The notes beneath the pieces were generated by a model. That model saw nothing but the letters and a program-made list of their open reading frames with translations, did not search any database and had not been told where the DNA came from. From Candidatus Nezhaarchaeota archaeon (GTDB lineage Archaea > Thermoproteota > Methanomethylicia > Nezhaarchaeales > WYZ-LMO8), in contig JANXDO010000001.1 in the NCBI GenBank assembly GCA_025059375.1, positions 44,575 through 108,574 of the forward strand: a DNA stretch of 64,000 nt, read 5' to 3'. Below, in pieces: positions 8,382 through 40,562 of the stretch. Each line of letters starts with the position of its first letter. The first letter of the stretch is position 1. The position numbers were made by a program, and so were the translations under genes.

Positions 8382-8382
8382 G

Positions 8383-10006: not shown

Positions 10007-10289
10007 TGCAACATTAATGTTCTCCTCCATGATTAAGGATCCCTGCCTTTAATCCAAACCCTTCTACTTGAGACCTTCAAGAACCTCGATCCAAATCTAA
10101 GAATGCTTAGTGTGCACTAAACTAATCACATAAACCTGATTTGTTGATCTCGTGTGAGCCACCATCAATTACACCTCAAGGTGGCGGCTTCTCTACACTA
10201 ATCCCTCATAACATCTTCCATAGTTGATCCCAACTTCTTTTATATTTCCTCAACATTTAAGTAACATTTGTATCCTGAGGGTGTTAACC

Positions 10290-10793
10290 ATGTCGCAACT
10301 AAGGATAAGTGAGGAGCTTTATCCACGCTTGACGGTATTAATAACAACATGTAGCAGTGATGGAAGGTTTAACGTGGCTACCTTCTCGTTCATCATGCCA
10401 GTCTCCTTTGAACCCAAGTATCTGGCCTTCTCGGTATCGCCTCATAGACAAACATTCAAGAACTTAAATGAAATTAAGGAGTTTGTTGTCAACATTCCAA
10501 CTGAAGATATGCTTGACAAGGTTTGGATATGTGGGACAAAGTCGGGGCGTGATGTTAATAAGTTTGAGCTAGCTAAGCTGGAGATCATTGATAGTAGAAA
10601 GGTTAAACCACCAAGAATAAAGAACTGTCCAATACAATTGGAGTGCAAGGTAGAGTTCATGAAGGAGTTCGGAGATCACTACATCGTAGTTGGAAGGGTC
10701 GTTGAAGAACACATCGATAGGATGGACTTCAAACCATTACTTCATCACTCTGGGAGACAGTTTTACAGGTTGGGCGAGAAAGTAGTAAAGTAG
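10290..10793 (+). CDS. flavin reductase-like FMN-binding domain protein
   Basis: Split-barrel flavin reductase blocks (LITTCSSDGRFNVATFSF, PRIKNCPIQLECKV). ATG 10290 is preferred over the track start at 10224. Confidence 0.75.
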   Translation: MSQLRISEELYPRLTVLITTCSSDGRFNVATFSFIMPVSFEPKYLAFSVSPHRQTFKNLNEIKEFVVNIPTEDMLDKVWICGTKSGRDVNKFELAKLEIIDSRKVKPPRIKNCPIQLECKVEFMKEFGDHYIVVGRVVEEHIDRMDFKPLLHHSGRQFYRLGEKVVK

Positions 10794-11016: not shown

Positions 11017-11090
11017 GGGCCCGTAGCTCAGCACGGTAGAGCGCCCGGCTCTTAACCGGGTGGTCGCGGGTTCAAATCCCGCCGGGCCCG
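11017..11090 (+). tRNA. tRNA-Lys (anticodon CUU), no encoded CCA, no intron
   Basis: Cloverleaf read by eye. Acceptor GGGCCCG/CGGGCCC, D arm GCTC..GAGC, anticodon stem CCCGG/CCGGG with loop CTCTTAA, T arm GCGGG-TTCAAAT-CCCGC, discriminator G. Confidence 0.93.
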
Positions 11091-11285
11091 CTCATAAAAG
11101 ATGAGTCTGCACCTTCCTATACTAGTTGAAGAGAGACCTAAGAGCAGCTTATGACCAATAATCCAGGGATTTACTTTATAGAAGCAGGACCTTCATCTTA
11201 AATCGGGCAATCTTTATTTTATTCTCTTCTCCACCTTTAATGGAAAAACGGATAATTGAAGTACCATGGTGTGAAGTGAGGAATC

Positions 11286-12881
11286 ATGGTAAGATTACCG
11301 GTAAATGAAATCTTAACCAAATCGAAAGAGAACTTCATTGAATCATGGATAACCTATGGGAAACTCATACCTGAGAGGAGAATTAAGCCCAAGAACATTT
11401 TGAATTATGGTGTTGGCAAGCCTCATCCGGTTTTTGAGACTTGTCAAAGACTACGACAAATATTTCTAAACTTAGGGTTCGAAGAAATTGTCAACCCACT
11501 AATTGTTGAGGATGAGGAAGTAAGGAAGCAGTATGGACCCGAAGCGCTTGCAATACTCGATAGATGCTATTACCTGGCTGTGCTACCTCGACCAGATGTC
11601 GGATTAGGCAAGGAGAAGATAGAGCAATTGAAGAGCCATGGAGTTGATGTGACTTCAGAGAAAATTCAAAACTTACAACAACTTCTTCACAACTATAAGA
11701 AGGGTCAGGTTTCAGGTGATGACCTGATAGAAGAGTTGAGCAAAGTGCTTGATGTCGATGACGTCACAGCCACAAAGATACTCTCTGAAGTCTTCCCAGA
11801 GTTTAAGGAGCTTAAACCTAAACCAACAAACCTCACATTAAGATCCCACATGACGACAGCTTGGTTTCTCACGATAGCGACTCTACAACATAAGAGACCT
11901 AAGCCAATAAAGCTATTCTCTGTTGATGTTAGAGTTCGAAGAGAACAGCAGGAGGATGCTAAACACCTTAGAACTCATAGAGCTGCTTCATGTGTTGTAA
12001 TAGATGAGGACGTCATTGCAGATGATGGTAGGGACATATCTCAAGTAGTGCTTGAAAGCTTGGGGTTTAAAGAGTTAAAGATAATAAAGAAGCAAGTTAC
12101 AGCAAAGTACTATGCGCCTGGAACGGAACATGAGGTCTATGTGAGGGCAAATGATGAGTGGATTGAAGTAGCCAACTATGGAATCTATAGCCCAGTAGCC
12201 TTAGCTAACTACGAGATTGAGTACCCTGTTTTAAATGTGGGATTTGGCGTCGAAAGGATAGCAATGATACTCTACGGTTATAGGGACGTTAGGGAGCTCG
12301 TTTATCCCCAGTTCTACGGTAAGTGGTCTCTAAACGACTACGAAATAGCAAAGCTCATATTCATTCAACGCATACCCTCGACTCAAGCTGGTTGGGAAAT
12401 TGCTAGGGCAATAACCAGTGGTGTCGAAGTGCATGCCAACGCATCAAGCCCATGCGAGTTTAAAGTTTACGAAGGAACGTTATTAAATAGACACATCAAG
12501 GTTTACCTGTACGAAAAGGATCCTGGCGTCAAGCTTGCGGGTCCAGCAGCCTTTAATGAGATAGTTGTATACAATGGCAACGTATTGGGAATACCTCCAA
12601 CTCGCTCGATAAGTGATCCATTGATCGACGAAGCTAGGTCCAAAGGTTGTAGAACCGGAATAAGGTACGTAGATGCTTTTGCAGCGCTAGCTGCCTCAAG
12701 GGTAGAAGCTGCATGCATAGCGGGTGCGAATGAGGTTGACGTCAAGGTAAAAATGGTGAAGCTTCCGAGCGACATTAACATAGAGATAGATGACGTTGCT
12801 AGGAGGTTTATAGTTGAAAATAAAAAAATTATAGATGTGAGAGGGCCTGTCTTTCTTGCAGTTAAAGCAACGTTGTCTTAA
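11286..12881 (+). CDS. sepS: O-phosphoserine--tRNA(Cys) ligase (SepRS)
   Basis: 531 aa. Class II PheRS-like core with LRSHMTTAWF, YYAPGTEHEVY and NVGFGVERIAM blocks characteristic of SepRS. Confidence 0.85.
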   Translation: MVRLPVNEILTKSKENFIESWITYGKLIPERRIKPKNILNYGVGKPHPVFETCQRLRQIFLNLGFEEIVNPLIVEDEEVRKQYGPEALAILDRCYYLAVLPRPDVGLGKEKIEQLKSHGVDVTSEKIQNLQQLLHNYKKGQVSGDDLIEELSKVLDVDDVTATKILSEVFPEFKELKPKPTNLTLRSHMTTAWFLTIATLQHKRPKPIKLFSVDVRVRREQQEDAKHLRTHRAASCVVIDEDVIADDGRDISQVVLESLGFKELKIIKKQVTAKYYAPGTEHEVYVRANDEWIEVANYGIYSPVALANYEIEYPVLNVGFGVERIAMILYGYRDVRELVYPQFYGKWSLNDYEIAKLIFIQRIPSTQAGWEIARAITSGVEVHANASSPCEFKVYEGTLLNRHIKVYLYEKDPGVKLAGPAAFNEIVVYNGNVLGIPPTRSISDPLIDEARSKGCRTGIRYVDAFAALAASRVEAACIAGANEVDVKVKMVKLPSDINIEIDDVARRFIVENKKIIDVRGPVFLAVKATLS

Positions 12882-19670: not shown

Positions 19671-20552
19671 ATGGATGGTCTAGAGCAACAACATTATTCT
19701 AAGCTCGAAGTTAAGCAAGAGATAACAAAATTTGCTAAGGATAGATGGGTTGGCATACACTGCATCAAAAAATATGTTAAGGGAGATAGGGTGATGGCTC
19801 GCTATCTCAACAAGAAACCAATAACGATAAGCACCCCAGATGACATAGACATACTGTGGCAAGAGCTTAAAGGTATAAGATCTATATACGCTACTGCCAT
19901 AAAATACCATAAAATCTCATCGATTAATGATGTGAAGAGCATAACTAACATGTCTTCATGTACACCAACCTGGGACGTGGATAATGACTTCAAACACTGG
20001 AAATCAACAATCGACTCTTGCTTAGAGATCGTGGGGGCCTTGAAGGACGAGGGGGTTGAAAAGTCAGTTTACATTAAGTGGAGTGGTGATGGGGCTCACG
20101 TGCACCTTCATGAGAACTCGCTAACTTATAAGTCATTGAAAGGCAGAACGCCACTAGACGTGGCCTATGCGATAGTCGAGTACATAAGACTAAAGGTTGA
20201 ACCAAGAGTACAAGAAATTGCAGTACGTGATAATTGTACCTTGAAGGTTGAGAATAAGATGGACGTGCAGCGCATGTTTACATGCCCACTAAGCCTCCAT
20301 AGAGATCATGATAGAGTCTGCATATGTATGAAGCCAAGTGCGCTATACTACTTCAATCCATCGTGGGTCAATCCAAACGCTTACAACCACGACGGTAGAT
20401 GGCAATCTTATGAGGAGGGGGAGGCTGACGAGCTTGCTGAAAAAGCCTTAAACGTCATAGGCGGCTTTCCAGCTAAGAAAGCTAGGGCTAGGAGGTTCCC
20501 AAGGGTTGACGAAATGATAGTTAAGTGGCTAAAAACCATTAATGGCATTTAA
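19671..20552 (+). CDS. archaeo-eukaryotic primase (AEP) fold protein, compact PriS-like
   Basis: The three AEP motifs occur in order: WDVDND (DxD), KWSGDGAHVHL (SGxGxH), MDVQRMFTCPLSLH (D..R....P.SLH). Confidence 0.55.
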   Translation: MDGLEQQHYSKLEVKQEITKFAKDRWVGIHCIKKYVKGDRVMARYLNKKPITISTPDDIDILWQELKGIRSIYATAIKYHKISSINDVKSITNMSSCTPTWDVDNDFKHWKSTIDSCLEIVGALKDEGVEKSVYIKWSGDGAHVHLHENSLTYKSLKGRTPLDVAYAIVEYIRLKVEPRVQEIAVRDNCTLKVENKMDVQRMFTCPLSLHRDHDRVCICMKPSALYYFNPSWVNPNAYNHDGRWQSYEEGEADELAEKALNVIGGFPAKKARARRFPRVDEMIVKWLKTINGI

Positions 20553-21024
20553 AGCTCTCTAAAGCTCCCTTAAATGCTCTCTCGCCATCCTCCTCACATC
20601 CTGAGCTACTAACACTGTAAATTATCATAATTCTGTTCGTGCGGTCACAGAAGAGGTGCATAGTTCGAACATCTTGCTCCACGTATGACTTCGTGAAGAC
20701 ACCCCCATGGCTTACTGATATCTTCATGTGAGCTGTGAGAGCCCTATGCCCATTAACTTCGATCACCCCCCTCGTTAGGATTTCAAATCTCTTAATCTGC
20801 TTGCTTTTAGAGAGACTCTGCACCATGTACTCCACGTAACTATCTAAATCGTCATGCCTCTTCAATGCATCACTAAGAGGGCCCCATAGCAAGGTCATGT
20901 AAGAACCCCTATTAGACCTAAAAATTACCTCACCATCCTCTCTCCTGAGCTTTCTAAACTCAACGATCCACTCCTTGGGGTAATTAACCCCAACCCCATA
21001 AACCTCGAACCTCTCAACCTCCAT
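20539..21024 (-). CDS. hypothetical protein
   Basis: 161-aa ORF with ordinary composition and no motif recognised. Its 3' end overlaps the primase-like gene by 14 nt. Confidence 0.45.
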   Translation of the reverse strand: MEVERFEVYGVGVNYPKEWIVEFRKLRREDGEVIFRSNRGSYMTLLWGPLSDALKRHDDLDSYVEYMVQSLSKSKQIKRFEILTRGVIEVNGHRALTAHMKISVSHGGVFTKSYVEQDVRTMHLFCDRTNRIMIIYSVSSSGCEEDGERAFKGALESFKCH

Positions 21025-21620
21025 CCCTTAGACCTCCAAGTGCGATAGCACCATCTTCTAACTTATACATTTGCCTAAACTTAACATATACTAAACGACT
21101 CACAATCAATTCCACTTCCTCCGACCCTGCTATATCCCTTGGTAGTTTAATGACAATCACGTCATTTCATTCAACAGTAACCTGTAAAATCTTCTAACTA
21201 ACCCCCCCACTATAGAGATCAAAGACAAAACATAAACGTGGTGAGAATACAATGAAAATAGACGCCGCTCTTAAGTGACTAGCACTAAAATCATAACATT
21301 GATGGTGGAGGTTGCCGTAGACCTCTATGAATATCATAGTGACTAGCACATTCGATTAGAGTGGGGCTTAAACAGCATTCTGGCATGACGACAAGTATTC
21401 CACACCGGCTCCATCACATTCTACACGATCCAATTTTATCTTTGAGAGCCCTTTTAGGTACGTCGCGGCCACACGATGGCAAGACGTCAAACTTACCGCC
21501 TAACACGACATTACATCAATCTCAGAGCAAATTTTAATAGCGTAGCGAGGAGACAGTAATATACTGACGTGAAGTTCTATGTTCCAATTACTAATGGGAG
21601 TAGGAGAGAGGATCTTCGGC

Positions 21621-21719
21621 ATGCTACCAGAGACCTTTGCTAGTTTAGTGGTGCCGGTCGCGGTCATAGTGATAACACTGCTAGTATGGGCCTTAACGTG
21701 GAGGCCTCCTCCAGAATAG
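21621..21719 (+). CDS. possible 32-aa single-TM micro-protein upstream of the symporter
   Basis: ATG..TAG reads MLPETFASLVVPVAVIVITLLVWALTWRPPPE. The stop lies 1 nt before the symporter start. It is below the ORF-track size cutoff. Confidence 0.3.
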   Translation: MLPETFASLVVPVAVIVITLLVWALTWRPPPE

Positions 21720-21720
21720 C

Positions 21721-23364
21721 GTGGTGATGAACATGCCTCAATACGCATTGAACGTTGATGCTCTAATAGTATTCATACTCTACCTAATAGCTATAGCCAT
21801 TATAGGCTACTTTGGTGCCAAGAGGACGAAAACGGTAGCCGACTTCGTTGCTGCTTCAGGTCAGCTCGGCTTCTGGACCTACGTGCTCCTAATGGTAGGC
21901 TCAGTGCTAAGCGGCATGAGCCTCATAGGCGTAGCAGGGCTAGGCTTTACTTCTGGTTGGTCAAACGTATGGGAGAGAGTAATAGGTCCAGCCTTTGCGA
22001 TATCATTCTGCACAGTCCTTGTCGGCTACAAACTATGGCCTCTTAGAAAGAAGTACAACTTGCTAACGATACAAGATTACTTCGCCATACGCTACGAGGA
22101 TCCAAAAGCTATGAGAGCCATAGCTGGCATAATTTCAGCGATAACCTGCTTTGCTTACCTTCTAGGGCAGTTCGCAGCAATAGGTGTTGTAAGCGAAGTA
22201 ATATTAGGGGTGCCGTACTTCATAGGCTCCTTAATAGCACTACTGGTTGTCGTTGGCTACGTGATGACCGGCGGAATGTTCTCAACCGCTTGGACGACAT
22301 TCCTCCAAGCTATACTAATGATAGCTGGCGTATACATTACTGTACCAATAATAATACAGTGGGTTGGTGGCTGGACTGCTCTTAACGAACTTGCATCACA
22401 AGTTCCAACACTCCAACAGACGTATAGAGGTCAACCCCCAACATACCTATTCGGCCCCTTCCTCGATAAGCCTGGATCACTCGATCCGAGATTAACATTA
22501 GTTGGCTGGACATTCAACTTCACGTTGTTCGGTATAACTGTACCTCTTGGACTATTGGTTGCCCCCCACATAGTCAACAACGTACTATGCTATAAGGACG
22601 TTAAATACACAAAGTGGGCTCCCATAGTAACCTACGTATTAGCTGTAATATTACTACTATTCACCTCCATCGCTGGACTAGCTGCTAGGGTTGCGTGGGC
22701 TCAGGGTCGCCTTGATCTTAAGGCGCTGACGCTCGCGGGCGGAGTGACAGTGGCGTGGTCCGACATGGCCTATCCAACCATAGCGACGCTCGCTCTACCG
22801 TACGCCCTCTTCATATTCCTGCTTCCATGTGTGCTAGCAGCCGTCATGTCCACAACTGATAGGCTCCTAGTCACCGCAGCCAGCAACATCTCCTACGATG
22901 TGGTTAAGAATGTCTTTAAGCCAGATATCTCAGAGAAAGCCCTTACATGGATATCTAGGGGGCTAGTAGCTGCGTTCGGCATCATTGCTTGGGCACTAAC
23001 CATAACTCCTCAACCCATGCTAGCATGGTTCATATGGGCGGCTTTATCAGTTATAATAAGTACGTTCCTCTGGCCAGTGCTGGGCGGCCTCTACTGGCGT
23101 AGAATGAATAAGCATGCAGCTAGGTGGGGAATGATAGTAGGGCTAGTGACCTCTTTAGTATTCGTGTACTTGGCCTACGAGTATTGGGGCAGGGCTGTTC
23201 GAGTCGTCGTTGACACCACCACGCTGTTCGTGATGTTCCCATCAATCCCTGGCCTCATTGCTAGCACGATAGTCACCCTAATACTAGCATACGTTACTAA
23301 ACCTCAATCTGAGCAAGTGCTAAAAGAGACTTTAACTGGTCCATTCCTAAGAGCGAGATCTTAA
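21721..23364 (+). CDS. sodium:solute symporter family (SSS) transporter
   Basis: 547 aa with about 13-14 TM segments and SSS-like N-terminal blocks (FVAASGQLGFW). The substrate is unknown. Confidence 0.8.
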   Translation: MVMNMPQYALNVDALIVFILYLIAIAIIGYFGAKRTKTVADFVAASGQLGFWTYVLLMVGSVLSGMSLIGVAGLGFTSGWSNVWERVIGPAFAISFCTVLVGYKLWPLRKKYNLLTIQDYFAIRYEDPKAMRAIAGIISAITCFAYLLGQFAAIGVVSEVILGVPYFIGSLIALLVVVGYVMTGGMFSTAWTTFLQAILMIAGVYITVPIIIQWVGGWTALNELASQVPTLQQTYRGQPPTYLFGPFLDKPGSLDPRLTLVGWTFNFTLFGITVPLGLLVAPHIVNNVLCYKDVKYTKWAPIVTYVLAVILLLFTSIAGLAARVAWAQGRLDLKALTLAGGVTVAWSDMAYPTIATLALPYALFIFLLPCVLAAVMSTTDRLLVTAASNISYDVVKNVFKPDISEKALTWISRGLVAAFGIIAWALTITPQPMLAWFIWAALSVIISTFLWPVLGGLYWRRMNKHAARWGMIVGLVTSLVFVYLAYEYWGRAVRVVVDTTTLFVMFPSIPGLIASTIVTLILAYVTKPQSEQVLKETLTGPFLRARS

Positions 23365-23596: not shown

Positions 23597-23830
23597 ATGT
23601 CTAAATGTGACCTCGTAGTGGATGCCCGTGGTCTTTCATGCCCAATGCCCTTGGTAAAGGCGTCACAGAGCATTAAGCAAGTCCCTATAGGCGGGGTAAT
23701 TGAAGTGCTAGCAACAGATCCAGCATCGAAAGAGGATATACCTAGATGGGCGAGGAGGATGGGTCATGAGGTCATTGAGGTTAGAGAAGAAAGTGGCGTC
23801 TTCCATGTATTTATAAAGAGGATGAAGTAG
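23597..23830 (+). CDS. tusA: TusA/SirA-family sulfur carrier protein
   Basis: 77 aa with DARGLSCPMPLVKA (the conserved CPxP active-site Cys). Confidence 0.9.
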   Translation: MSKCDLVVDARGLSCPMPLVKASQSIKQVPIGGVIEVLATDPASKEDIPRWARRMGHEVIEVREESGVFHVFIKRMK

Positions 23831-23831
23831 G

Positions 23832-24191
23832 ATGTCTAAGGAGGATATAGTCTTCGTCTTAAATAACGGTAAACCTGATGGTGCATCCTTTCCATTCATG
23901 TTCTCATCAGCAGCACTAAACTTAGGCGTTAAGGTTAAGATAATAGTGCTTGGTGGTGCAGTAGAAGCCTTTATGAAGCGAAACTTTGAAAGAATAGTCT
24001 TTAGCAAAGCACCGGAACCAGTTGATCTACTCCCTCAACTACTAGAAATGGACCTCGAAATAATGGCGTGTAAAGCATGTATTGACGCTTTAAGAGTATC
24101 ATCAGAGGAACTTATAGATGGAATTAAGATAATGGGACCCGTAACCTTCATAGAGGAAACTACAAGCGCTAATGCCACAATATCATTGTAA
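23832..24191 (+). CDS. DsrE/DsrF-like family protein (COG2044-type)
   Basis: 119 aa with a DsrE-fold layout and an ACKAC cysteine pair. It starts 1 nt after the tusA stop. Confidence 0.65.
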   Translation: MSKEDIVFVLNNGKPDGASFPFMFSSAALNLGVKVKIIVLGGAVEAFMKRNFERIVFSKAPEPVDLLPQLLEMDLEIMACKACIDALRVSSEELIDGIKIMGPVTFIEETTSANATISL

Positions 24192-24274
24192 AGCAAGGCT
24201 ATGATGCCAAGATCATACCCAGCTGTCCTGTTATTCTTCCCAGTTTATAGTTTAAATGGAGGTGTAGCAACGCG

Positions 24275-26617
24275 TTGAGAAATGAGGATCATAGAATAGG
24301 GGTCTTCATATGTGCTTGTGGAGGCAATGTAAGCAACATCATTGATATCAACAAAGTGGCGGAGGAAGTTTCTAAGCTTAATGGCGTTACTGTAGTTAAG
24401 ACGTATGATTACTTTTGTTCAGAACCAGGTCAAAAGATTATTGAGGAGGAGAGCAGGAGGAACAACATCAACAGGTTGATTGTAGCTGCTTGCACTGAGA
24501 ACATGCACTTAAAGACATTTAGAGACGTTGCATCAAGAGCTGGTGTAAACCCATACCAGCTGGCGAGGGTCAATTTGAGAGAGCATAACTCTTGGACTCA
24601 AAGCGACAAAGAAGGAGCAACAGCTAAGGCGATATCGACGATAGCTAGCGTGGTGGAAGCGAGTAAGTACATGGAGCCTCTACAGCCACTAAAAAGTGAG
24701 GTTAAGAGGAAGGCGCTTGTAATCGGAGGGGGCATAGCAGGGATAACAGCAGCACTTGAACTAGCTGATGCTGGCATAGAGGTAGCGCTCATAGAGTCGA
24801 AGCCGAGCATAGGAGGGCACATGGCACAATTGAACAAGACTTTCCCAACATTAGATTGTTCGCAGTGCATCTTAACTCCAAAGATGGTTGAAGTCGTAAA
24901 CCACCCAAACATAAAGCTCTATGCCTACTCTGAAGTCAAGAACGTTGAGGGATCTCCAGGAAACTATAAGGTCACAATATTCATGAAGCCGCGTGGAGTA
25001 GACCCAACCAAGTGTGTAAGCTGCGGATTATGTTCAGAGAAGTGTCCAGCATCAACGATCAACGAGTTTGATGAAGGTCTCTCTAAGAGGAAAGCCATAT
25101 ACAAGCCCTTCCCCCAAGCTGTCCCTTCAGCGTACACTATAGACTTCAATGCTTGTAAGAGATGTGGCTTGTGTGCAAAAATATGTCCAAGAGGAGCTAT
25201 AAACCTGGATGATAAGGGTCAAGTGGTTGAACTTGACGTTGGCGCAATAATTCTCGCAACAGGCTTCGACTTAATAGACTTGAGATCATACGATGAGTGG
25301 GGTTACGCCAAGCACCCCGACGTCATAACATCCCTTCAATTAGAGAGACTTATATCTCCGATAGGTCCGACAAGGGGGGCCCTACTTAGACCAAGTAATG
25401 GTCAATCTGTCAGCAGCATAGTGTTCATCCTATGTGCTGGCTCACGAGATACTAGTGGTAGAGGTGTACCATACTGTAGCAAGATATGCTGCATGTACTC
25501 CATGAAAAACGCCATACTCATAAAGGAACTCATGCCATCAACCGTCATCTGGATATTCTACATAGACATCAGAGCAGCCGGCAAAGGCTATGAAGAGTTT
25601 TATGAGAAGTGTAGGAGGGAGGGTGTAATCTTCGTTAGGGGAAAGGTAAGTGAAGTTGAATATAATCATCAAAGTGGGAAGCTAATCGTTAAAGCTGAAG
25701 ATACCCTCCTCTGTAGCCCAATTGAGGTTGAGACTGATCTAGTTGTGTTGTGTCCAGCTATTGTGCCCAGCCGATCTATTCTTGAGCTCGTAGAGAAACT
25801 TAAGATGTCACTATCTGAGGATGGCTTTATCCAAGAGAAGCACCCCAAGATAGATCCAGTAGCGACCTTAAAGGAGGGAGTTTACGTTTGTGGCTGTGCC
25901 TCGAGCCCTAAGGACATAAGGGAGAGCGTTGTTGAAGCACAAGCAACAGCTAAAAGAGTCCTTGAACTGCTAGCAAGTGACTTCATAACCATTGAGCCAG
26001 AGAAGGCAATAATAGATGAAAACAAGTGTACAAACTGCGGCATCTGCATAAGTGCTTGTCCATATAGAGCGATATCAAGCTTAAACGGCAAGACGAAGAT
26101 AGACGTAATCTCATGCACTGGCTGTGGTGCATGTATACCAGAGTGTCCAGTAAATGCCATAGAGCTTAAGCACTTCTCAAAGAAGATGCTCAAAGCTATG
26201 ATTGATGGTGCGGTTAGCAGCGCAACATTTAGGCCATTAATATTAGCCTTCGTGGAGAAGAAGATAGCATACTCAGCAATGGATCAAGTAGGCTTAAATA
26301 GGCTCAAGTACCCTCACAACATCGTACCGATATACGTACCGTCAACTGCTTACATTAGCCTCGACGACTTAATATACGCCTTCTCGAGAGGTGTAGATGC
26401 GATAGCCCTCCTTGAAGGGAAGCCAGAGCTAATAGAGCTAATGAAGAAGAGAATTAAGAAGTTTCACGACAAGCTTGATGAAATGGGAATTGAGTCTATG
26501 AGGCTATGGTTCACTGACGCCCCATTACCAGCCTTCAGGAAGCTAAGGGACTTCCTCGAGCAGATCAAATCCATGGCTGAAGAGTTGGGACCACCACCCA
26601 AGCTTGAAGTCACCTAA
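24275..26617 (+). CDS. hdrA: heterodisulfide reductase subunit A (long, methanogen-type) with C-terminal MvhD-like extension
   Basis: N-terminal Cys domain (GVFICACGGN). FAD motif GGGIAGITAALELA. TLDCSQCILTPKM, CAGSRD and YCSKICCMY blocks. Four CxxCxxCxxxCP ferredoxin motifs. A 146-aa tail with MvhD-like blocks. Confidence 0.9.
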   Translation: MRNEDHRIGVFICACGGNVSNIIDINKVAEEVSKLNGVTVVKTYDYFCSEPGQKIIEEESRRNNINRLIVAACTENMHLKTFRDVASRAGVNPYQLARVNLREHNSWTQSDKEGATAKAISTIASVVEASKYMEPLQPLKSEVKRKALVIGGGIAGITAALELADAGIEVALIESKPSIGGHMAQLNKTFPTLDCSQCILTPKMVEVVNHPNIKLYAYSEVKNVEGSPGNYKVTIFMKPRGVDPTKCVSCGLCSEKCPASTINEFDEGLSKRKAIYKPFPQAVPSAYTIDFNACKRCGLCAKICPRGAINLDDKGQVVELDVGAIILATGFDLIDLRSYDEWGYAKHPDVITSLQLERLISPIGPTRGALLRPSNGQSVSSIVFILCAGSRDTSGRGVPYCSKICCMYSMKNAILIKELMPSTVIWIFYIDIRAAGKGYEEFYEKCRREGVIFVRGKVSEVEYNHQSGKLIVKAEDTLLCSPIEVETDLVVLCPAIVPSRSILELVEKLKMSLSEDGFIQEKHPKIDPVATLKEGVYVCGCASSPKDIRESVVEAQATAKRVLELLASDFITIEPEKAIIDENKCTNCGICISACPYRAISSLNGKTKIDVISCTGCGACIPECPVNAIELKHFSKKMLKAMIDGAVSSATFRPLILAFVEKKIAYSAMDQVGLNRLKYPHNIVPIYVPSTAYISLDDLIYAFSRGVDAIALLEGKPELIELMKKRIKKFHDKLDEMGIESMRLWFTDAPLPAFRKLRDFLEQIKSMAEELGPPPKLEVT

Positions 26618-26715
26618 TCGAGGTGAAGGTAGCAATCAAGATCTAATGGAGATCTCAACTTTACGAGCACAATAAGCCTTTAGAAATAAATTGAGAGAAA
26701 CGTCAAGATGTAGAG

Positions 26716-27159
26716 GTGGCGTCCATGGTCAAGGTTGGAGAGTTTGAGCTCCCTGATGAACTTTACTATTGGCGAAAGGGGTTAACGTGGGCTAAGCTTG
26801 AGCCAGACGGTAGGATAAGAGTGGGCTTAACGGATCTTGGTCAAAGGATAGCTGGAAAGATCCTTACCGTCAGAATTAGAGCTAAAGGAGCAAAGGTCAT
26901 GCAGGGTAGACCTATAGCAACAATAGAGACAGCGAAATGGGTTGGACCACTAGAGTCTCCAATATCTGGAATTATAGACGAAGTCAATGAGGAGCTCAAA
27001 TCAAATCCGGCTCTATTGAACGAAGACCCCTACGGTAAGGGGTGGATAGCAATACTAAAACCTTTAAATGTTGACGAGGAACTTAAAAGTCTAGTGAAAG
27101 GTGGAACACCTGAAGCCATAGAGTGGTATAAGGCTGAGATCAAAAGTAGGGTGAAGTAG
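26716..27159 (+). CDS. glycine cleavage H-protein-like putative lipoyl carrier protein (LbpA-like candidate)
   Basis: The lipoyl-attachment context is conserved (IETAKWVGPLESPISGII), followed by NEDPYGKGWI. No gcvT/gcvP is present in the window. Confidence 0.8.
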   Translation: MASMVKVGEFELPDELYYWRKGLTWAKLEPDGRIRVGLTDLGQRIAGKILTVRIRAKGAKVMQGRPIATIETAKWVGPLESPISGIIDEVNEELKSNPALLNEDPYGKGWIAILKPLNVDEELKSLVKGGTPEAIEWYKAEIKSRVK

Positions 27160-27232
27160 TGAGCCCTTCAGTTGAATTACAATTTCAGCTAACTTTTTCT
27201 CCTTCTCACCTCCTTCTTTACTGGGAGCTTAG

Positions 27233-27592
27233 ATGATCTTAGGCATACTATTAAACACAGGCCCCTATTCATTTGAATACACGGACTTAGTGGTCAAGAT
27301 AGCCAGGGAGGCTGTTAAAAAAGGTCATAAGGTAAAGTTATACTTGTATGTGGATGGCGTTTACAATGCACTTAAATCCATAAACCCTCCTTTACCTGAA
27401 GAGAGAAACATAGCCGCCCTCCTCAAGGAGCTATTAAACTTGGGAGTTGATATCAAGGTGTGCCCAGTATGCGCTGAATATAGGGGAGTTAAAGATGATA
27501 AAAACTTGGTGAATGGAGTGAGCTACGAGGGTCTAGGGTATTTCGGGGAACTTGCAGCTGATTGCGACAAGCTACTCGTCTTCACGCATTAG
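27233..27592 (+). CDS. sulfurtransferase DsrE/TusD homolog
   Basis: GVYNA and KVCPVCAEYRGV (active-site Cys context) align with TusD/DsrE. Confidence 0.8.
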   Translation: MILGILLNTGPYSFEYTDLVVKIAREAVKKGHKVKLYLYVDGVYNALKSINPPLPEERNIAALLKELLNLGVDIKVCPVCAEYRGVKDDKNLVNGVSYEGLGYFGELAADCDKLLVFTH

Positions 27593-27594
27593 GG

Positions 27595-27960
27595 GTGTAT
27601 GAATTGGTCAGTTCTATTACCATAGTTTTAACGAAATCACCTTATGGCGATGTAGACACGATTGAAGGTTTAAGAGTTGCGTCTTCACTAGTGGCTTTCG
27701 GCATAGAGACTACGGTTGTGTTCATGGATGATGCTGTTTTATCATTAACCAAGACCCACAGGCCGGAGGGGGTGGGCATGCTATCCATTCATGGTGCGAT
27801 AAGGGCATTAACAGGTGCAAGGATTCTCGTGCACACACCATCTCTTGACGAGAGGTCTCTTTCAAGAGAAGATCTAATCGAAGGAGTGCCTTTCGAGCTC
27901 ATTAATGATGACGATCTTGTTGAGATGATAGCTAAAGCTGACATTACTTTCACAATGTGA
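27595..27960 (+). CDS. sulfurtransferase DsrF/TusC homolog
   Basis: TKSPYGD..EGLRV and SLDERSL blocks resemble TusC. The GTG 3 nt after the dsrE-like stop is preferred over the overlapping TTG at 27562. Confidence 0.7.
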   Translation: MYELVSSITIVLTKSPYGDVDTIEGLRVASSLVAFGIETTVVFMDDAVLSLTKTHRPEGVGMLSIHGAIRALTGARILVHTPSLDERSLSREDLIEGVPFELINDDDLVEMIAKADITFTM

Positions 27961-27971
27961 GGCTGGTATTG

Positions 27972-28286
27972 ATGAGCATACTGTATGTGTTGTATAAATC
28001 CCCCCTAACTCATCGAGTTCCACTGAAGGCACTCGACATCATTGAAAAACAAGTTGATAGGGGCTATAAGGTCAATGTGCTCCTCCTCTCTGATGCAGTT
28101 ATAGCCTTAGTGAGTAAAAGTCTAAAGCCACGCTTGAAGGTTTTAAGAAGTAGGGGCAGTATTATATATGCCTTAAAGGAGGATCTTGAAGCGCGCGGAA
28201 TAACTAGTGACATCGCGACTCCTGTCAGTTACAGTGAAGTAGTGGATTTGATAGAAGCTCATGAAAAAGTGAGCAGCTGGTCTTAA
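27972..28286 (+). CDS. sulfurtransferase DsrH/TusB homolog
   Basis: MSILYVLYKSP N-terminus, YALKEDLEARG, and a C-terminal SSWS resemble TusB. The alternative start at GTG 27957 overlaps the dsrF-like stop. Confidence 0.7.
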   Translation: MSILYVLYKSPLTHRVPLKALDIIEKQVDRGYKVNVLLLSDAVIALVSKSLKPRLKVLRSRGSIIYALKEDLEARGITSDIATPVSYSEVVDLIEAHEKVSSWS

Positions 28287-28515
28287 CTTTTTATTACTAG
28301 CAGTGCATCACTCCATTAACTTCAATGTAGCACATGCGCTAGCTAAACAATTTAACAGGAGCTCTAAGTGTGATGTAAACTAATCCATTCTCAAGTTTTT
28401 AAGCTTATCAACCTCACACCTTTAAATCAAACAAATCAATTTTAAAAGCAGTATTACACCTATTAGGCTCTCTACTCATGGTAATGCTTAATAGTTTCGT
28501 ATTTAATGGTTTTCA

Positions 28516-28998
28516 TTGACTATGGGGGCTTTAAGGCTTCTAAGGCACATTAAGAGAATGATACCCTTAAGAGGTAACCATTGGGTTAGACATTGGTACA
28601 CAGTATCCTCAATCAAGGGGGACTTCGACCAATACTTAGGCTGTACGTACGCCCCCTTTGAGTTCGATGATATTTGGGGCTTAGGAGAGGTAGTCTTTGG
28701 GGTCAGGGATCAAGTGGGCTTCATTAGTGAATGCAGAATTCATGTTAGTAAGGATACTGAAGTTGAAGTTGAGTATGGATGCGATGATGGGGCAAGACTA
28801 TTCGTCTATGACATGTACGGTGATCTCGTCTACTTGAGGGATGATAGTTGGAAGGTACAGCCATTCACGAAGTATAGTGCATCCTTTAAGCTAAGGAAGG
28901 GTATCTACAGGTTTAGACTAGACTTCTATGAGTGGACTGCCTATGCAAGGGTATCATTTAGAGTCTTGAAGGGTGACATCAAGCCGATTAGAATTTAA
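28516..28998 (+). CDS. hypothetical protein with PA14-like beta-sandwich signature
   Basis: GCDDGARLFVYD ... KGIYRFRLDFYEWTAYARVSF resembles the PA14 core. No obvious signal peptide. Confidence 0.4.
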   Translation: MTMGALRLLRHIKRMIPLRGNHWVRHWYTVSSIKGDFDQYLGCTYAPFEFDDIWGLGEVVFGVRDQVGFISECRIHVSKDTEVEVEYGCDDGARLFVYDMYGDLVYLRDDSWKVQPFTKYSASFKLRKGIYRFRLDFYEWTAYARVSFRVLKGDIKPIRI

Positions 28999-29328
28999 GC
29001 CTCAATAGCTTCTTAACTCGATCTACATCTAAACTCAAGGACTAGGACATTAAGGGCGTGACTTAAGGTAAGTCTATGCTTTCAGCGTCTTAGCGGGTTG
29101 CAGCCCTACGTTTTCCACTTACAGTTCTTTAGGGATAGCTTAAACGCTTAAGAATCTTTAGCGAGTAAGAAGTTCCCTAATAGGCTTTCAATCGTTATGC
29201 CACCTGGTCAAGTCAAGAATTTTCACAGTACTCTTAAGAGACATACAGGGGGGAGAGGTTCGTAAAGTGTTAGCACCTCAGACCCACATAGACTAGCATC
29301 CAACTGGTTACACGTGACTGTTATTTCA

Positions 29329-37795: not shown

Positions 37796-38703
37796 TGGAA
37801 AGGATATTGAGATGGAGAAACTACGTAGCGATACCATTAAGATCAACACTGTGGAGGCCAAAGACCGACTTCAAGCAAGAAATTGTTACGCTAATAGGGA
37901 ACATAGCGTCAAATGGAGATTACCTGGTCGTCTCGGAGAAGGCCTTGTCAACGGCTTTAGGCTTACTATACGATGAATCAGTGATACCTTCAGATCCATA
38001 CAGCAAGTTAATGACCTTTCTGATAAGCAGGATACTATGGGGTAAATTGTTAGGTGTAATGTGTAGGTTATCTCACGATACCATGGAGCTTCTTAGTAAG
38101 TACCCAATTCCTGAGGGTACAAGACATAAGAAGCTTGCATTAAGAATTGGAGGGCCCCTACAGGCCCTCAAGCCTACATCAGAGGCTGGAATTGACACCA
38201 CCAATGTCCCAGCACACTTAGTTTCATTACCATTGACAAAGCCGTTTAATGTGGCTCATGAGATCAGGGAGCACATATTTGAGAAGCTGGGAATATACTT
38301 GAAGGTAGTTATAGTTGATAGCGATAAATGCTATAAGTTGAAGCCTGTTTCAAACCTAATTCTAACATCTAGAAAGACAGAGCTACCATCATCAATAAAC
38401 TTAGGCTTCTTATCGTTTCTTATCGCAAGGACGCTTAGGAAGCTATTTAGCCCTTATGCAACGCCAATAGGCTTCTCGCCACCAAACTTAAGCATTGATG
38501 AACTCCTTATAGTCTCTGAACTAGCTGATAGAGCGCGCGGCGTAGGTGCTGGAAGAACCCTACACGAAATGGAGAGGACTTTTGGGATTAAAGCGATTAA
38601 CATTACATGGAGTCTGCTAGGCTCTATCCCCCATTATCCAATAGTCATAGTTAAAAAGATTGGAAAGATTAAGAGGTCTCAACAGCCTTCAAGGCATCCT
38701 TAA
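37792..38703 (+). CDS. divergent CofE-superfamily (F420-0:gamma-glutamyl ligase-like) protein
   Basis: GDYLVVSEKALS and EAGIDTTNVPAHLVSLPL...KVVIVDSD parallel the CofE blocks. It is 303 aa, longer than a typical CofE. GTGA overlap with the RimK-like gene. Confidence 0.55.
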   Translation: MMERILRWRNYVAIPLRSTLWRPKTDFKQEIVTLIGNIASNGDYLVVSEKALSTALGLLYDESVIPSDPYSKLMTFLISRILWGKLLGVMCRLSHDTMELLSKYPIPEGTRHKKLALRIGGPLQALKPTSEAGIDTTNVPAHLVSLPLTKPFNVAHEIREHIFEKLGIYLKVVIVDSDKCYKLKPVSNLILTSRKTELPSSINLGFLSFLIARTLRKLFSPYATPIGFSPPNLSIDELLIVSELADRARGVGAGRTLHEMERTFGIKAINITWSLLGSIPHYPIVIVKKIGKIKRSQQPSRHP

Positions 38704-39598
38704 GGTATATCTTATAAGGTCCAAGCTTACCGCCATAGTTACCAGCTGTAACCTTCACAACTCCCTTAACGCTACAGGCGGCTTTAATCCCTACACCCGT
38801 AGCCTTTGTAACCGACTCTAAGTCCAACCCATTAATCACTATCTCCATGACACTTTTCACGTTCTCAGGTATCTTTGTGTCTGGAACCCTATCCCTTATT
38901 GAAGGGCAGTATAAGTGGTTTGTCGTAGCAGCTAGCTTCGGGTACTTTAGGGATCCAACCTTAGAACCTGACCTTACTATGCCTCCAGGAAATGGAAGTA
39001 TAACGTTCTTGCACTTACTTGAAATCTCTTCTACAGCTTTCTCAGCAGCCTCTAATGCAGCCTCGCGACTTGAAGCTAGTATGAATAGGTTTCCACCGGC
39101 TACAGCTTTAATGACGCCTACAGCGTCTTCAACTATGAACTCACCCTCCATGACTGGTATCCTCCACACCACCTTACCGTACATGGCGTCCTTAACTTCA
39201 TAGCCATCGCCAAACTTTGCTAGGGCCTCGCCTATGTGCATCTTCCTCTTAGCTTTAGGTACACCATCAAAAAGTGCCGTTGTAGGGCAAGTTAAAATGC
39301 ACTGACCCACTCTGACGATAGTTTGGAGCTTCAATTCAGGCACAGACCTATGGTATATCTGTATTAAAGCTCCTACCCTTCCATCAGGTGTTCTATCTGG
39401 TGGCACAAGCCTCTCTAGTCCAGCCTCAGCTGGAGACATTATTATTGAGGTGGCAAAACCCGTTGAGACCCTTGCTGCAGTCAAAGCCCACTTCTCATTC
39501 AAGGCTGTTATAAGCAGCCTCGTAGCGTACATGGGGAACGCTTCAGCAAACGTGTCTTCAACCTCAACCTCTCCAACCTTAAACGACAAGCACCTCAC
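38669..39598 (-). CDS. ftr: formylmethanofuran--tetrahydromethanopterin N-formyltransferase
   Basis: VEVEDTFAEAFPMYATRLLITA N-terminal block. 309 aa. Confidence 0.9.
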   Translation of the reverse strand: MRCLSFKVGEVEVEDTFAEAFPMYATRLLITALNEKWALTAARVSTGFATSIIMSPAEAGLERLVPPDRTPDGRVGALIQIYHRSVPELKLQTIVRVGQCILTCPTTALFDGVPKAKRKMHIGEALAKFGDGYEVKDAMYGKVVWRIPVMEGEFIVEDAVGVIKAVAGGNLFILASSREAALEAAEKAVEEISSKCKNVILPFPGGIVRSGSKVGSLKYPKLAATTNHLYCPSIRDRVPDTKIPENVKSVMEIVINGLDLESVTKATGVGIKAACSVKGVVKVTAGNYGGKLGPYKIYLKDALKAVETS

Positions 39599-39689
39599 CA
39601 GGCTTTATTTCTCTAAGAATTAGCGCTTAAGCTTTAAACTCTAGCCAGAAACGGAAAATTTTTTCAAATTTTAAATATGGAAACTTGTT

Positions 39690-40556
39690 TTGGTGCCGGA
39701 TTTGAGCCAACAAACTCCTATTAGAGTAGGTATTGTAAAGTTAGGTTGCATTGGCTGCTCACCGCTTTTCGAGTATTTACTTGATGAGAGGGCGGACAGA
39801 GATGACATAACCGTCAGGGTTGTAACATGTGGAGCTAAGATGACACCAGAGGAGGCTGAATCTGTCGTAAGAATGCTAGAGCCATTTAAGCCTCAATTAA
39901 TAATTATCATAAGCCCTAATGCTGCTCTTCCAGGACCTACAAAGGCTAGGGAGGTAGCTAAGACGCTTAATGCACCAGTGGTCATAATAACTGATGCGCC
40001 AGCAAAAAAGGCTGCTAGCAAGTTTGAGGAGGGAGGTTTTGGCTACATAATAGTTGAGGCAGACTCCATGATTGGTGCTCGAAGAGAGTTTCTAGATCCA
40101 GCGGAGATGGCACTATTCAATGCTGACATAATAAGAGTACTAGCTATAACTGGAGTCTTTAACCTAATGGTTAAGACCATGGACGAAATGATCTCCGCCA
40201 TTAAGAGGGGTGAGGAAGTAAAGTTACCAAAAATCATAGTTACCAAGGAGCTCGCAATTGAAAATGCAGGTTTCTCTAATCCATACGCTCTAGCCAAGGC
40301 TATGGCTGCATACGAAGCCTCAAGAAAAGTTGCAGATCTAACAACCGAAGGCTGCTTTAAGGTTCAGGAGTGGGAGAAGTACATACCACTCGTAGCCGCA
40401 GGTCATGAGCTTATGAGGTACGCAGCTAAGTTAGCTGATGAAGCTAGAGAAATCGAGAAGGGCATCGATCAAGTGATGAGGATGCCTCATAGGGCAAGTG
40501 GCGAGCTAGCTGTCAAGAGGAAGCTAGTAGAGAAGCTTCCCCCGAAGCGTGGGTAG
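39690..40556 (+). CDS. mtd: F420-dependent methylenetetrahydromethanopterin dehydrogenase
   Basis: VGIVKLGCIGCSPLFEYLLDERADRDDI matches the Mtd N-terminus. The start is uncertain (GTG 39690 or TTG 39699). Confidence 0.88.
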   Translation: MVPDLSQQTPIRVGIVKLGCIGCSPLFEYLLDERADRDDITVRVVTCGAKMTPEEAESVVRMLEPFKPQLIIIISPNAALPGPTKAREVAKTLNAPVVIITDAPAKKAASKFEEGGFGYIIVEADSMIGARREFLDPAEMALFNADIIRVLAITGVFNLMVKTMDEMISAIKRGEEVKLPKIIVTKELAIENAGFSNPYALAKAMAAYEASRKVADLTTEGCFKVQEWEKYIPLVAAGHELMRYAAKLADEAREIEKGIDQVMRMPHRASGELAVKRKLVEKLPPKRG

Positions 40557-40562
40557 TGACCG

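Follow-up and report, generated by a model that had tools for sequence, protein, structure and literature searches.

In 'Candidatus Culexarchaeia', the lipoyl group of a GcvH protein has been proposed to carry an unknown disulfide for the HdrB subunit of an HdrA2B2C2-type heterodisulfide reductase (Hdr), the gcvH gene lying inside an HdrA2B2C2/Ehe hydrogenase cluster; TusA and DsrE are not mentioned in that work (Kohtz et al. 2022, PMC9723716). For the non-canonical Hdr enzymes of archaea that do without, or are not dependent on, the mixed disulfide of coenzymes M and B (CoM-S-S-CoB), a lipoyl protein has been proposed as the substrate only through gene adjacency in that one class. In the sHdr-LbpA systems, an Hdr flavoprotein, a non-canonical GcvH-like protein, TusA and a DsrE-family protein are encoded in one cluster (Cao et al. 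2018, PMC6067878; Tanabe et al. 2024, PMC11094781). Here we analyse a stretch of 64,000 nucleotides, hereafter the window, from a Candidatus Nezhaarchaeota archaeon (contig JANXDO010000001.1, positions 44,575 to 108,574), in which tusA, a dsrE-family gene (dsrE'), hdrA, a gcvH-like gene and dsrE-dsrF-dsrH follow one another with neither hdrB nor hdrC among them. A sister lineage carries this cluster in complete form, tusA-dsrE'-hdrA-hdrB-gcvH-like-dsrE-dsrF-dsrH with a convergent hdrC, and the locus is a variant of known systems rather than a new machine. To the reading that we prefer we give about an even chance: the window would hold the remnant of this larger cluster, a lipoyl-dependent Hdr unit beside a facultative persulfide relay, with paralogous HdrB and HdrC recruited from elsewhere.

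The cluster and its immediate surroundings comprise the following features.

21721..23364, + strand: SSF (sodium:solute symporter family) transporter (PF00474, 9e-54), upstream of tusA; its membership of the unit is uncertain
23597..23830, + strand: tusA, persulfide carrier (PF01206, 4e-27)
23832..24191, + strand: dsrE' (119 aa), divergent member of the DsrE/YchN family (PF02635, 1e-10; PF13686, 2e-8)
24275..26617, + strand: hdrA (780 aa), methanogen-type, with an FAD site, ligands for six [4Fe-4S] clusters and an MvhD-like fusion
26240..26590, + strand: C-terminal MvhD/FlpD-like domain of HdrA, residues 656-772 (PF02662, 1e-16)
26618..26715: 98-bp spacer, the hdrB site in the sister lineages
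26716..27159, + strand: gcvH-like gene, lipoyl carrier (PF01597, 3.5e-32); probable start at 26725, judged from homologues
27233..27592, + strand: dsrE/tusD-like gene, active-site subunit (PF02635; 2HY5_A, E = 1e-11)
27604..27960, + strand: dsrF/tusC-like gene (PF02635, 4e-14; TIGR03010, 9e-12); the mechanical open reading frame (ORF) call starts at 27562
27957..28286, + strand: dsrH/tusB-like gene (PF04077, 8e-13; TIGR03011); homologues place the likely true start near 27972
28287..28515: 229-bp spacer, the hdrC site in the sister lineages
28516..28998, + strand: conserved 160-aa protein (h160) without a Pfam or NCBIfam match, function unknown

An earlier sequence-only reading of this DNA had described the seven genes from tusA to dsrH as a co-directional set. 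All seven ORFs lie where it had placed them, profile searches bear out their domain identities, and all are intact, with no stops or frameshifts. The spacers measure 1, 83, 98 and 73 nt, after which the genes abut or overlap; the start of dsrF at 27604 was inferred by alignment to its counterpart in a relative, contig L001. TATA-like boxes and Shine-Dalgarno-like sequences precede both hdrA and tusA.

The only close relatives of the window HdrA belong to two sister lineages. Lineage 2, with HdrA 75% identical to that of the window, is represented by a 199-kb ENA contig (L001) and by the Guaymas metagenome-assembled genome (MAG) B19_G17 (L010 and L041), whose HdrB and HdrC are identical to those of L001; the cluster genes of L001, L010 and L041 are all intact. 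Lineage 3 (HdrA 77-78% identical) is represented by L002 (the same as L039), L040 and L038. Both lineages keep the gene order and flanks of the window and add hdrB, encoding a 296-aa protein with two CCG domains, which begins at the hdrA stop codon (seen in L001, L002 and L040). In addition, hdrC (170 aa, minus strand, convergent) directly follows dsrH (seen in L001 and L040). The gene order noted in the sequence-only reading thus recurs in relatives, but the self-contained module working without HdrBC that this reading had proposed is not supported, as both sister lineages with the same order carry hdrB and hdrC.

At the corresponding sites in the window, no hdrB remnant was found in the 98-bp spacer, where local alignment performed no better than with shuffled sequence, and no HdrC-like coding remnant was found in the 229-bp spacer, where homology to relatives is confined to the promoter-proximal end: its final ~85 bp match the intergenic sequence between hdrC and h160 in L040 (score 74; shuffled maximum 29). 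Neither HdrB nor HdrC gave a tblastn match elsewhere in the 64 kb. As the sequence-only reading had stated, the window has no hdrB, hdrC, dsrC/tusE, gcvT or gcvP; ORF profiles and tblastn across it returned none of these and no CCG-domain protein. The same layout without hdrBC is seen in a Logan assembly made independently (L003), indicating that the absence is not an assembly error, and we rejected an artefact as its cause. In a 5.8-billion-protein collection that contains the window's own HdrA and DsrE, the L001 HdrB has two close relatives (99% and 75% identity) and otherwise only matches at 54% or below, a result that leaves room for paralogues at ~50% identity; among the 120 best matches, none came from a contig of 1,029,192 bp, the length by which the window's genome is recognised. 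The cluster's own hdrB therefore appears to have been lost rather than relocated, and an orthologue elsewhere in the genome is unlikely. The cultured Methanonezhaarchaeia strain YNP3N has a Fwd-HdrABC cluster at a separate locus and an Ehg hydrogenase that contains HdrB (PMC12700198), and since HdrABC and HdrB copies occupy other loci in this strain, HdrBC paralogues are likely, by analogy, to exist elsewhere in the window's genome.

Comparison with further relatives exposes a series of states at this chromosomal site.

Lineage 2 (L001): tusA and dsrE' intact; hdrA and gcvH-like intact; hdrB and hdrC present; dsrEFH intact
Window and L003: tusA and dsrE' intact; hdrA and gcvH-like intact; hdrB and hdrC absent; dsrEFH intact
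Lineage 3 (L002, L040, L038): tusA and dsrE' pseudogenes; hdrA and gcvH-like intact; hdrB and hdrC present; dsrE and dsrH pseudogenes
L074 and L078: tusA and dsrE' absent; hdrA and gcvH-like absent; hdrB and hdrC absent; dsrEFH intact

In lineage 3, L002 and L040 (93.8% DNA identity) share one tusA frameshift, and each has additional stops and frameshifts of its own in tusA and dsrE' (L002:554-1136, L040:30-561). Pseudogenes of dsrE and dsrH are present in L040 and L038 (L040:4454-4714, 5202-5428), the L002 contig ending before them, while hdrA, hdrB, gcvH and hdrC are intact. The four relay genes decay together and hence behave as one functional unit, and their decay beside a retained hdrABC-gcvH set indicates that the sulfur relay and Hdr are not obligate partners. 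L074 and L078, two Nezhaarchaeales-type species from different samples, share the window's flanks but have only dsrE-dsrF-dsrH-h160 at the site, lacking the transporter, tusA, dsrE', hdrA, hdrB, gcvH and hdrC. Two distant archaea (L075 and L076, one a Promethearchaeota/Asgard MAG) carry a divergent tusA beside dsrE-dsrF-dsrH and nothing else of the cluster; in one of them, ThiI, PP-loop ATPase and MoeA genes lie nearby. The occurrence of dsrEFH alone at this site, and with tusA elsewhere, points to an older, independent unit native to the locus. Joining HdrA and the sulfur relay into one module, as the sequence-only reading did, is not supported, in view of the separability of dsrEFH and the decay of the relay in the lineage that retains hdrABC-gcvH. 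What every hdr-bearing lineage retains is hdrA with the gcvH-like gene, the sole pair to be so kept and hence the invariant core.

The window is the first of the three hdr-bearing lineages to branch off in the HdrA tree and, with the hdr-less relatives equidistant, parsimony on these three is ambiguous. Because outgroup HdrA clusters carry both hdrB and hdrC, we nevertheless regard loss of hdrBC in the window lineage as considerably more probable than gain in the others. In the nearest other HdrA clade (P0032; L071/L072) the order is hdrC-hdrB-hdrA followed by a GCV_H gene, and a Bathyarchaeia relative (L004), with HdrA ~50% identical to the window clade, has hdrA-hdrC-hdrB. The HdrB and HdrC of L001 are 51-57% identical to the L004 subunits, about as distant as HdrA (~50%), which supports the view that hdrBC would have travelled together with hdrA and gcvH.

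By its sequence, HdrA is of the methanogen (bifurcating) type and not of the short sulfur-oxidiser type: residues 4-646 align with residues 2-649 of the methanogen HdrA 5ODC_A (E = 5e-198), whereas the sHdrA 6TJR matches residues 319-565 only (E = 5e-38). The architecture is complete, with an N-terminal Cys4 domain (Cys13, Cys15, Cys48 and Cys73), a thioredoxin-reductase-like domain binding flavin adenine dinucleotide (FAD; GxGxxG at residue 151), and inserted and C-terminal 2x[4Fe-4S] ferredoxin domains holding four CxxCxxCxxxCP motifs (at residues 247, 294, 585 and 614). The full methanogen-type cofactor set recorded in the sequence-only reading is thus present. There is no CxxC redox disulfide near the flavin, all cysteines (31 in total) being assigned to cluster motifs. 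The protein falls below the curated NCBIfam cut-offs, scoring 833 bits against 1100 for its best model, HdrA2 (NF040770), 734 against 1300 for NF041891 (HdrA) and 654 against 1400 for NF041778.

Overlooked in the sequence-only reading was the C-terminal MvhD-like domain, in which every [2Fe-2S] cysteine ligand is replaced by V, E, I, S or K in alignments to the MvhD proteins 9SFI_K, 8RVU_F and 5ODC_D. This ligand loss is common to 14/14 aligned related Thermoproteota HdrA fusions. The same lack of cysteine ligands marks the MvhD-like domain of all Thermoproteota HdrA fusions examined (Bathyarchaeia, 'Geothermarchaeota' and the window's clade; P0002-P0120), and a domain without [2Fe-2S] ligands would make the usual electron entry from Mvh hydrogenase impossible in these enzymes.

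Relaxed selection on the window HdrA was considered and not detected. At ~80 of 348 highly conserved positions, the HdrA of this clade departs from 116 other HdrA sequences; the count is 81 for the window, against 79 and 82 for the relatives that keep hdrBC. Tajima relative-rate tests were non-significant for five of six outgroups, with a slight, non-significant excess of private substitutions in the window HdrA (46 vs 32). Identity between lineages (75-78%) matches that of ThrRS and YjeF (73-75%), and with this level of conservation and undiminished constraint we think that HdrA is still in use. Among the ~49%-identical HdrA homologues from Bathyarchaeia and Geothermarchaeota, the contexts are hdrACB-ThiF, HdrD-like/electron-transfer flavoprotein/acyl-CoA dehydrogenase and Tfr-like, with no sulfur-relay genes in any. 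Of the Bathyarchaeia clusters with an HdrA-MvhD-like fusion, one has a ThiF-family E1-like gene after hdrACB (L004:11843-12628) and another lies near a ThiS-like gene (L070:2167-2499), neighbours through which these Hdr enzymes may again be connected with the chemistry of sulfur carriers.

The GcvH-like protein carries a lysine (K74, in 'IETAKWV') aligning with the lipoyl-lysine of solved GcvH structures, in line with the lipoyl context proposed earlier. It scores 82.0 bits against the TIGR00527 gcvH equivalog model, below the curated cut-off of 115.85, and a canonical GcvH identity was rejected on this ground. A Bathyarchaeia GcvH passes at 134.7 bits; the archaeal relatives of the window protein also fail, and the bona fide sHdr LbpAs of Sulfobacillus, at 95 and 54 bits, span the range in which it falls. 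Its score therefore marks it as a non-canonical, LbpA-like GcvH.

Genome and metagenome scans for its relatives were seeded on N-terminal motifs of the window protein and are biased by the motif chosen. Archaeal relatives at 54-65% identity came from Desulfurococcales, Sulfolobales, Nezhaarchaeales and Nitrososphaerota MAGs, and in the loci readable on both sides they adjoin CCG-domain proteins, coupled to GlcD/GlcF-like FAD-linked oxidases or LutB/LutA-like proteins. All bacterial relatives (35-46% identity) are LbpA pairs inside classic sHdr clusters. A CCG-domain (HdrB-like) disulfide-reductase module is thus a recurring neighbour of the GcvH-like subfamily, even with motif-biased scans, a pattern that points to lipoyl proteins as redox partners of archaeal CCG-domain enzymes in general. 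In individual loci (L011:5463-11655, L013:4467-9787, L012, L014-L016 and L042-L049) the GcvH-like gene lies between GlcD/GlcF-like oxidase/CCG genes and LutB/LutA-like genes, and L011 adds thioredoxin-like, thioredoxin-reductase-like and radical-SAM/BATS genes together with a second gcvH. In Ca. Hecatella orcuttiae (L017:7243-10438; L050) genes for a molybdopterin oxidoreductase (722 aa) and a 4Fe-4S subunit immediately precede the GcvH-like gene, a context resembling a polysulfide/thiosulfate-reductase arrangement.

Turning to the relay, TusA is well supported by its domain model (PF01206, 94 bits against a cut-off of 28.6) and has the CPMP active site of the sequence-only reading ('SCPMP', with Cys15). 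It lies below the E. coli TusA equivalog cut-off (55 vs 78 bits) and is 69% identical to the L001 protein and 43-45% identical to TusA from bacterial sHdr clusters. One nucleotide after the tusA stop begins dsrE', whose ACKAC pair, also reported earlier, comprises Cys80 and Cys83, Cys80 occupying the active-site position of the DsrE family. Among solved structures DsrE' has no close relative (best YchN, E = 0.013), with no match to DsrE3A (3MC3) or DsrE2B (2QS7) at E <= 1. A 45-residue match to the DsrE2 model is weak (29 bits against a cut-off of 210), and tblastn found no DsrE' in 20 bacterial sHdr loci. From these structure, model and tblastn comparisons, DsrE' was rejected as a DsrE3 or DsrE2 sHdr-type transferase.

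The abutting dsrE, dsrF and dsrH genes were likewise identified correctly from the sequence alone, with PF02635, PF02635 and PF04077 in that order. DsrE Cys77 ('KVCPVCAEYRGV') aligns with Allochromatium DsrE Cys78 in 2HY5_A, while DsrF and DsrH contain no cysteine. NCBIfam scores fall below the cut-off for TusD (54.7 vs 89.25 bits) and TusC (45 vs 94.15) and above it for TusB (TIGR03011, 61.5 vs 49.2). As a TusE/DsrC acceptor, the window offers no PF04358-type ORF and no TusE tblastn match. A word-indexed homologue search shows the TusD-like DsrE family to be rare, with 14 proteins at E <= 1e-8. DsrE is 79% identical to that of L001 and 53-55% identical to those of the hdr-less L074 and L078, against a baseline of ten flanking proteins that are equidistant (70.6, 71.8 and 70.9% identity). 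This contrast is the one remaining hint, drawn from sequence comparison, of a coupling between relay and Hdr. As judged from its sequence and distribution, dsrEFH is a TusBCD-type unit, independent and native to this chromosomal site.

Beyond the cluster, orthologues of h160 follow dsrH in L001, L040, L074 and L078. An SSF gene is also found upstream of tusA in L001 and L002; the L001 copy, at just 25% identity, is not orthologous to that of the window. The SSF gene of the window belongs to a variable segment (20539-23364) between a conserved 293-aa gene and tusA, which also contains a 161-aa minus-strand ORF without a homologue at the site in L001 or L074. The DUF3467 gene that follows h160 in L001, L074 and L078 is a pseudogene in the window (29095-29244, region 28999-29328); its remnant, 'PYVFHLQFFRDS', is broken by stops and frameshifts, which adds to the signs that genes around the cluster are eroding.

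The host is a Nezha-type archaeon with the tetrahydromethanopterin (H4MPT) pathway, as its gene content indicates, and probably comes from a hydrothermal setting. The window is collinear over >30 kb with a 'Candidatus Nezhaarchaeales archaeon' MAG, flanking proteins sharing ~72% amino-acid identity; it encodes an archaeal signal recognition particle RNA, and its closest relatives are Guaymas Basin MAGs. Further genes in the window bear on the host's metabolism.

38669-47087: H4MPT methyl-branch cluster encoding Ftr, Mtd, a fused FwdDB, FwdA, FwdC, Mer and Mch
50143-50850: MfnB
62783-63661: stand-alone MtrH

An F420-ligase-like protein is also encoded. The fused FwdDB matches the fused FwdBD described beside Wood-Ljungdahl genes in Methanonezhaarchaeia strain YNP3N (PMC12700198). 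O-phosphoseryl-tRNA synthetase (SepRS) is encoded beside tRNA-Lys(CTT) at 11017-12881, with no SepCysS seen in the window; SepRS points to cysteine being made by the tRNA-dependent route, which calls for a sulfur donor. A riboflavin-biosynthesis operon (7683-10006) with two tandem lumazine-synthase-like genes is flanked by genes for an HpaB-family protein (4-hydroxyphenylacetate 3-hydroxylase/4-hydroxybutyryl-CoA dehydratase family, 6076-7503) and a flavin reductase (10224-10793).

In the reading that we prefer, the cluster would comprise two units. The first would be a persulfide relay, in which sulfane sulfur is handed among TusA Cys15, DsrE' Cys80 and DsrE Cys77. The second would be a flavin/iron-sulfur disulfide reductase of HdrA2B2C2 type, for which the lipoyl arm of the GcvH-like protein is most likely the dedicated substrate. 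HdrB, the subunit with the CCG domains, would be the site where the lipoyl disulfide is reduced, with electrons passing via HdrC and the FAD of HdrA, possibly coupled to ferredoxin. Where present, the relay may load or unload sulfane sulfur on the dihydrolipoyl carrier, giving H2S and a lipoyl disulfide that Hdr would re-reduce. In the window's genome, a clean deletion would have removed hdrB and hdrC, and HdrA and the lipoyl carrier would remain functional with CCG/HdrBC paralogues encoded elsewhere. Gene content, cofactor ligands, synteny and the loss pattern are observed directly, whereas we propose that the lipoyl protein is the substrate, that HdrBC paralogues are used and that sulfur and electrons flow in the directions given here.

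Several points weigh against this reading. The genome was read over 64 kb, and HdrBC paralogues are expected from the class rather than seen; hdrB and hdrC may have been deleted only recently, and the intact hdrA would then be uninformative about function. The hdr-bearing lineages number only three, too few for simple parsimony to tell a loss of hdrBC in the window, which branches first, from its gain at a later time in the other two. To judge from the reciprocal losses, any link between relay and Hdr is dispensable, and since the flanks are collinear too, the conserved order inside the cluster is weak evidence for such a link. Modification solely by a dedicated sLpl(AB)/LipS1/LipS2 pathway, and not by canonical ligases, serves as a mark of LbpA; no gene for a lipoate ligase or for LipS1/LipS2 lies within the 64-kb window. 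The GcvH-like protein is cysteine-free, lacking the two conserved cysteines, one near each terminus, of LbpA, although some archaeal LbpAs lack them as well (PMC6067878). Moreover, the midpoint potential of lipoamide, ~-290 to -325 mV (PMC8760232), is far below that of CoM-S-S-CoB, making it a poor high-potential acceptor for bifurcation.

A bolder extension, taken as a whole, we hold to be quite improbable. In it, the lipoyl disulfide of these hydrothermal Nezha-type archaea would replace or supplement CoM-S-S-CoB as the oxidant of a bifurcating Hdr and be regenerated by sulfane sulfur from TusA, DsrE' and DsrEFH, so that reduction of S0 or polysulfide would drive ferredoxin reduction for CO2 fixation by Fwd and the H4MPT pathway, for which the window also holds genes; the window HdrA would act without its own HdrBC, directly or with recruited CCG subunits, and the complete cluster of the sister lineage would be a plausible intermediate between methanogenic Hdr and bacterial sHdr-LbpA.

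The model of the sequence-only reading, an HdrBC-independent module in which HdrA exchanges electrons directly with the lipoyl arm or with TusA/DsrE'/DsrEFH persulfides and HdrBC was discarded as dispensable, has several observations in its favour. Both deletions are clean and leave seven intact ORFs, no genes of the cluster other than hdrA and gcvH-like have been kept intact in each of the three lineages with hdr genes, HdrA is under no relaxed constraint, and no orthologue of the cluster hdrB turned up elsewhere in the protein collection; flavoproteins of the thioredoxin-reductase-like fold, to which HdrA belongs, can also act on disulfides. To our knowledge, however, every solved or characterised Hdr performs its disulfide chemistry at the non-cubane clusters of the CCG subunit and not in HdrA (5ODC family). 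With no CxxC redox disulfide near the flavin, with hdrB and hdrC kept beside hdrA and gcvH in the sister lineages and the next HdrA clade alike, and with HdrBC paralogues usual in the host's class, we find this model very doubtful. Alternatively, the Hdr-lipoyl unit could have been dead since the loss of hdrBC, with hdrA and the gcvH-like gene unbroken only for want of time and the dsrEFH relay, with or without tusA, alone still functional. Erosion across the clade is in keeping with this: two related species (L074 and L078) hold dsrEFH only, lineage 3 has four pseudogenes, the downstream DUF3467 gene is broken in the window, and private HdrA substitutions are in slight, non-significant excess. 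Such decay is unlikely, given that neither stops nor frameshifts interrupt the 2.3-kb hdrA with its 31 cysteines, the gcvH-like gene, tusA or dsrE', that HdrA is as conserved between lineages as ThrRS and YjeF, and that its departures at conserved sites are no more numerous than in relatives keeping hdrBC.

The adjacency could also be meaningless, with an extra HdrA paralogue serving CoM-S-S-CoB reduction, the GcvH-like protein in lipoate or one-carbon metabolism, and a biosynthetic relay for thionucleosides, cofactors or cysteine and Fe-S. The host has a full H4MPT pathway and belongs to a methanogen class, dsrEFH occurs with or without tusA but without hdr genes in four other archaea (once near ThiI, a PP-loop ATPase and MoeA), relay and hdrBC were lost independently, and in a region collinear among relatives conserved order is expected anyway. 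We judge coincidence unlikely, however, because the Hdr/CCG adjacency to the GcvH-like subfamily recurs across unrelated contexts and phyla, the GcvH-like protein misses the gcvH equivalog cut-off with no gcvT or gcvP nearby, hdrA-hdrB-gcvH is sandwiched co-directionally with short spacers between tusA-dsrE' and dsrEFH, and the 79% conservation of DsrE is confined to the two lineages with an intact relay beside hdrA and gcvH. Archaeal dissimilatory sulfur oxidation of sHdr type, running in the oxidative direction as in Hyphomicrobium, Sulfobacillus and Sulfolobales, would account for TusA, a DsrE-family protein and a GcvH-like lipoyl protein whose nearest bacterial relatives are LbpAs in sHdr clusters. 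It keeps hardly any probability against a long methanogen-type HdrA with a partial sHdrA match, the lack of an hdrB1/C1/B2/C2 set, a DsrE' that is not of DsrE3 type, the missing LbpA cysteine pair and an anaerobic H4MPT Wood-Ljungdahl host. Membership of the sHdr family was accordingly rejected as essentially excluded by the long HdrA and by the lack of a double HdrBC, of the LbpA cysteines and of DsrE3.

Seen beside published systems, the locus provides a second, independent class tying a bifurcating-type HdrA to a non-canonical GcvH-like protein, and the first case found of this pair embedded in a TusA/DsrE/DsrEFH persulfide relay, a combination earlier associated with sHdr sulfur oxidation. 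A literature search found no description of tusA-dsrE'-hdrA-hdrB-gcvH-dsrEFH in archaea. The sequence-only reading had suggested that the module may be undescribed; a lipoyl GcvH as the disulfide partner of an HdrA2B2C2-type enzyme had already been put forward as a hypothesis (PMC9723716). The relatives amount to natural "knock-outs" (full cluster, no hdrBC, no relay, dsrEFH only) that define the hdrA and lipoyl core, and we consider the complete cluster of the sister lineage, with this series of losses, more interesting than the hdrBC-less state alone. With one member of the class now cultured, the hypothesis is testable. If a link between relay and Hdr were true, it would bear on the origin of the sHdr-LbpA pathway and on the sulfur chemistry feeding electron bifurcation.

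The comparison with known systems confirms that the locus combines features of methanogenic Hdr and of sulfur-oxidiser sHdr clusters, as had been noted from the sequence alone. With methanogenic HdrABC-MvhAGD (5ODC) and the F420H2-dependent HdrA2B2C2 of Methanosarcina acetivorans it shares an HdrA that matches 5ODC_A over its whole length, every cluster motif and the FAD site included, and whose best NCBIfam model is HdrA2, the HdrA-MvhD fusion. It differs in that the HdrA2 cut-off is missed, the MvhD-like [2Fe-2S] ligands are lost, hdrBC, mvhAG and frhB are not adjacent, and the clade departs from other HdrA sequences at ~80 of 348 conserved sites. Its relay resembles TusA-TusBCD-TusE, the E. 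coli 2-thiouridine relay, and DsrEFH-DsrC of Allochromatium in having three paralogues in E/D-F/C-H/B order with tusA nearby and the active cysteine kept in the E/D subunit, the same trio occurring with a divergent tusA in Asgard and other archaea. It differs from them in the missing TusE/DsrC, a DsrH without cysteine, scores below the TusD and TusC cut-offs and the rarity of the family.

With sHdr-LbpA the locus has in common the gathering of an Hdr flavoprotein, a non-canonical GcvH-like protein, TusA and a DsrE-family protein in one cluster, and its lipoyl protein finds its closest bacterial counterparts in the LbpA pairs of sHdr clusters, with gcvH-model scores in the same range. However, sHdrA is short with one cluster whereas the window HdrA has its full length and binding sites for six clusters; against the two HdrB/HdrC pairs of sHdr the window has none; LbpA has two conserved cysteines and the GcvH-like protein has none; and DsrE3/DsrE2 contrast with a YchN-like DsrE' and a DsrEFH trio in an anaerobic host. 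As in Culexarchaeia, the host is a TACK archaeon that has the H4MPT pathway and encodes an HdrA2-type HdrA-MvhD fusion beside a member of the GcvH family, and the nearest clade of the window HdrA (L071/L072) has hdrC-hdrB-hdrA and then GCV_H. Unlike the Culexarchaeia cluster, the window lacks hdrB2/hdrC2 and any nearby Ehe hydrogenase, SdhA or CdhA, adds tusA, dsrE' and dsrEFH, and has a GcvH-like protein only 53% identical to the GCV_H of L071. The window locus thus works most like the proposed HdrA2B2C2-GcvH system of Culexarchaeia, with an accessory set of the sHdr-LbpA-TusA-DsrE kind, and is a member of neither.

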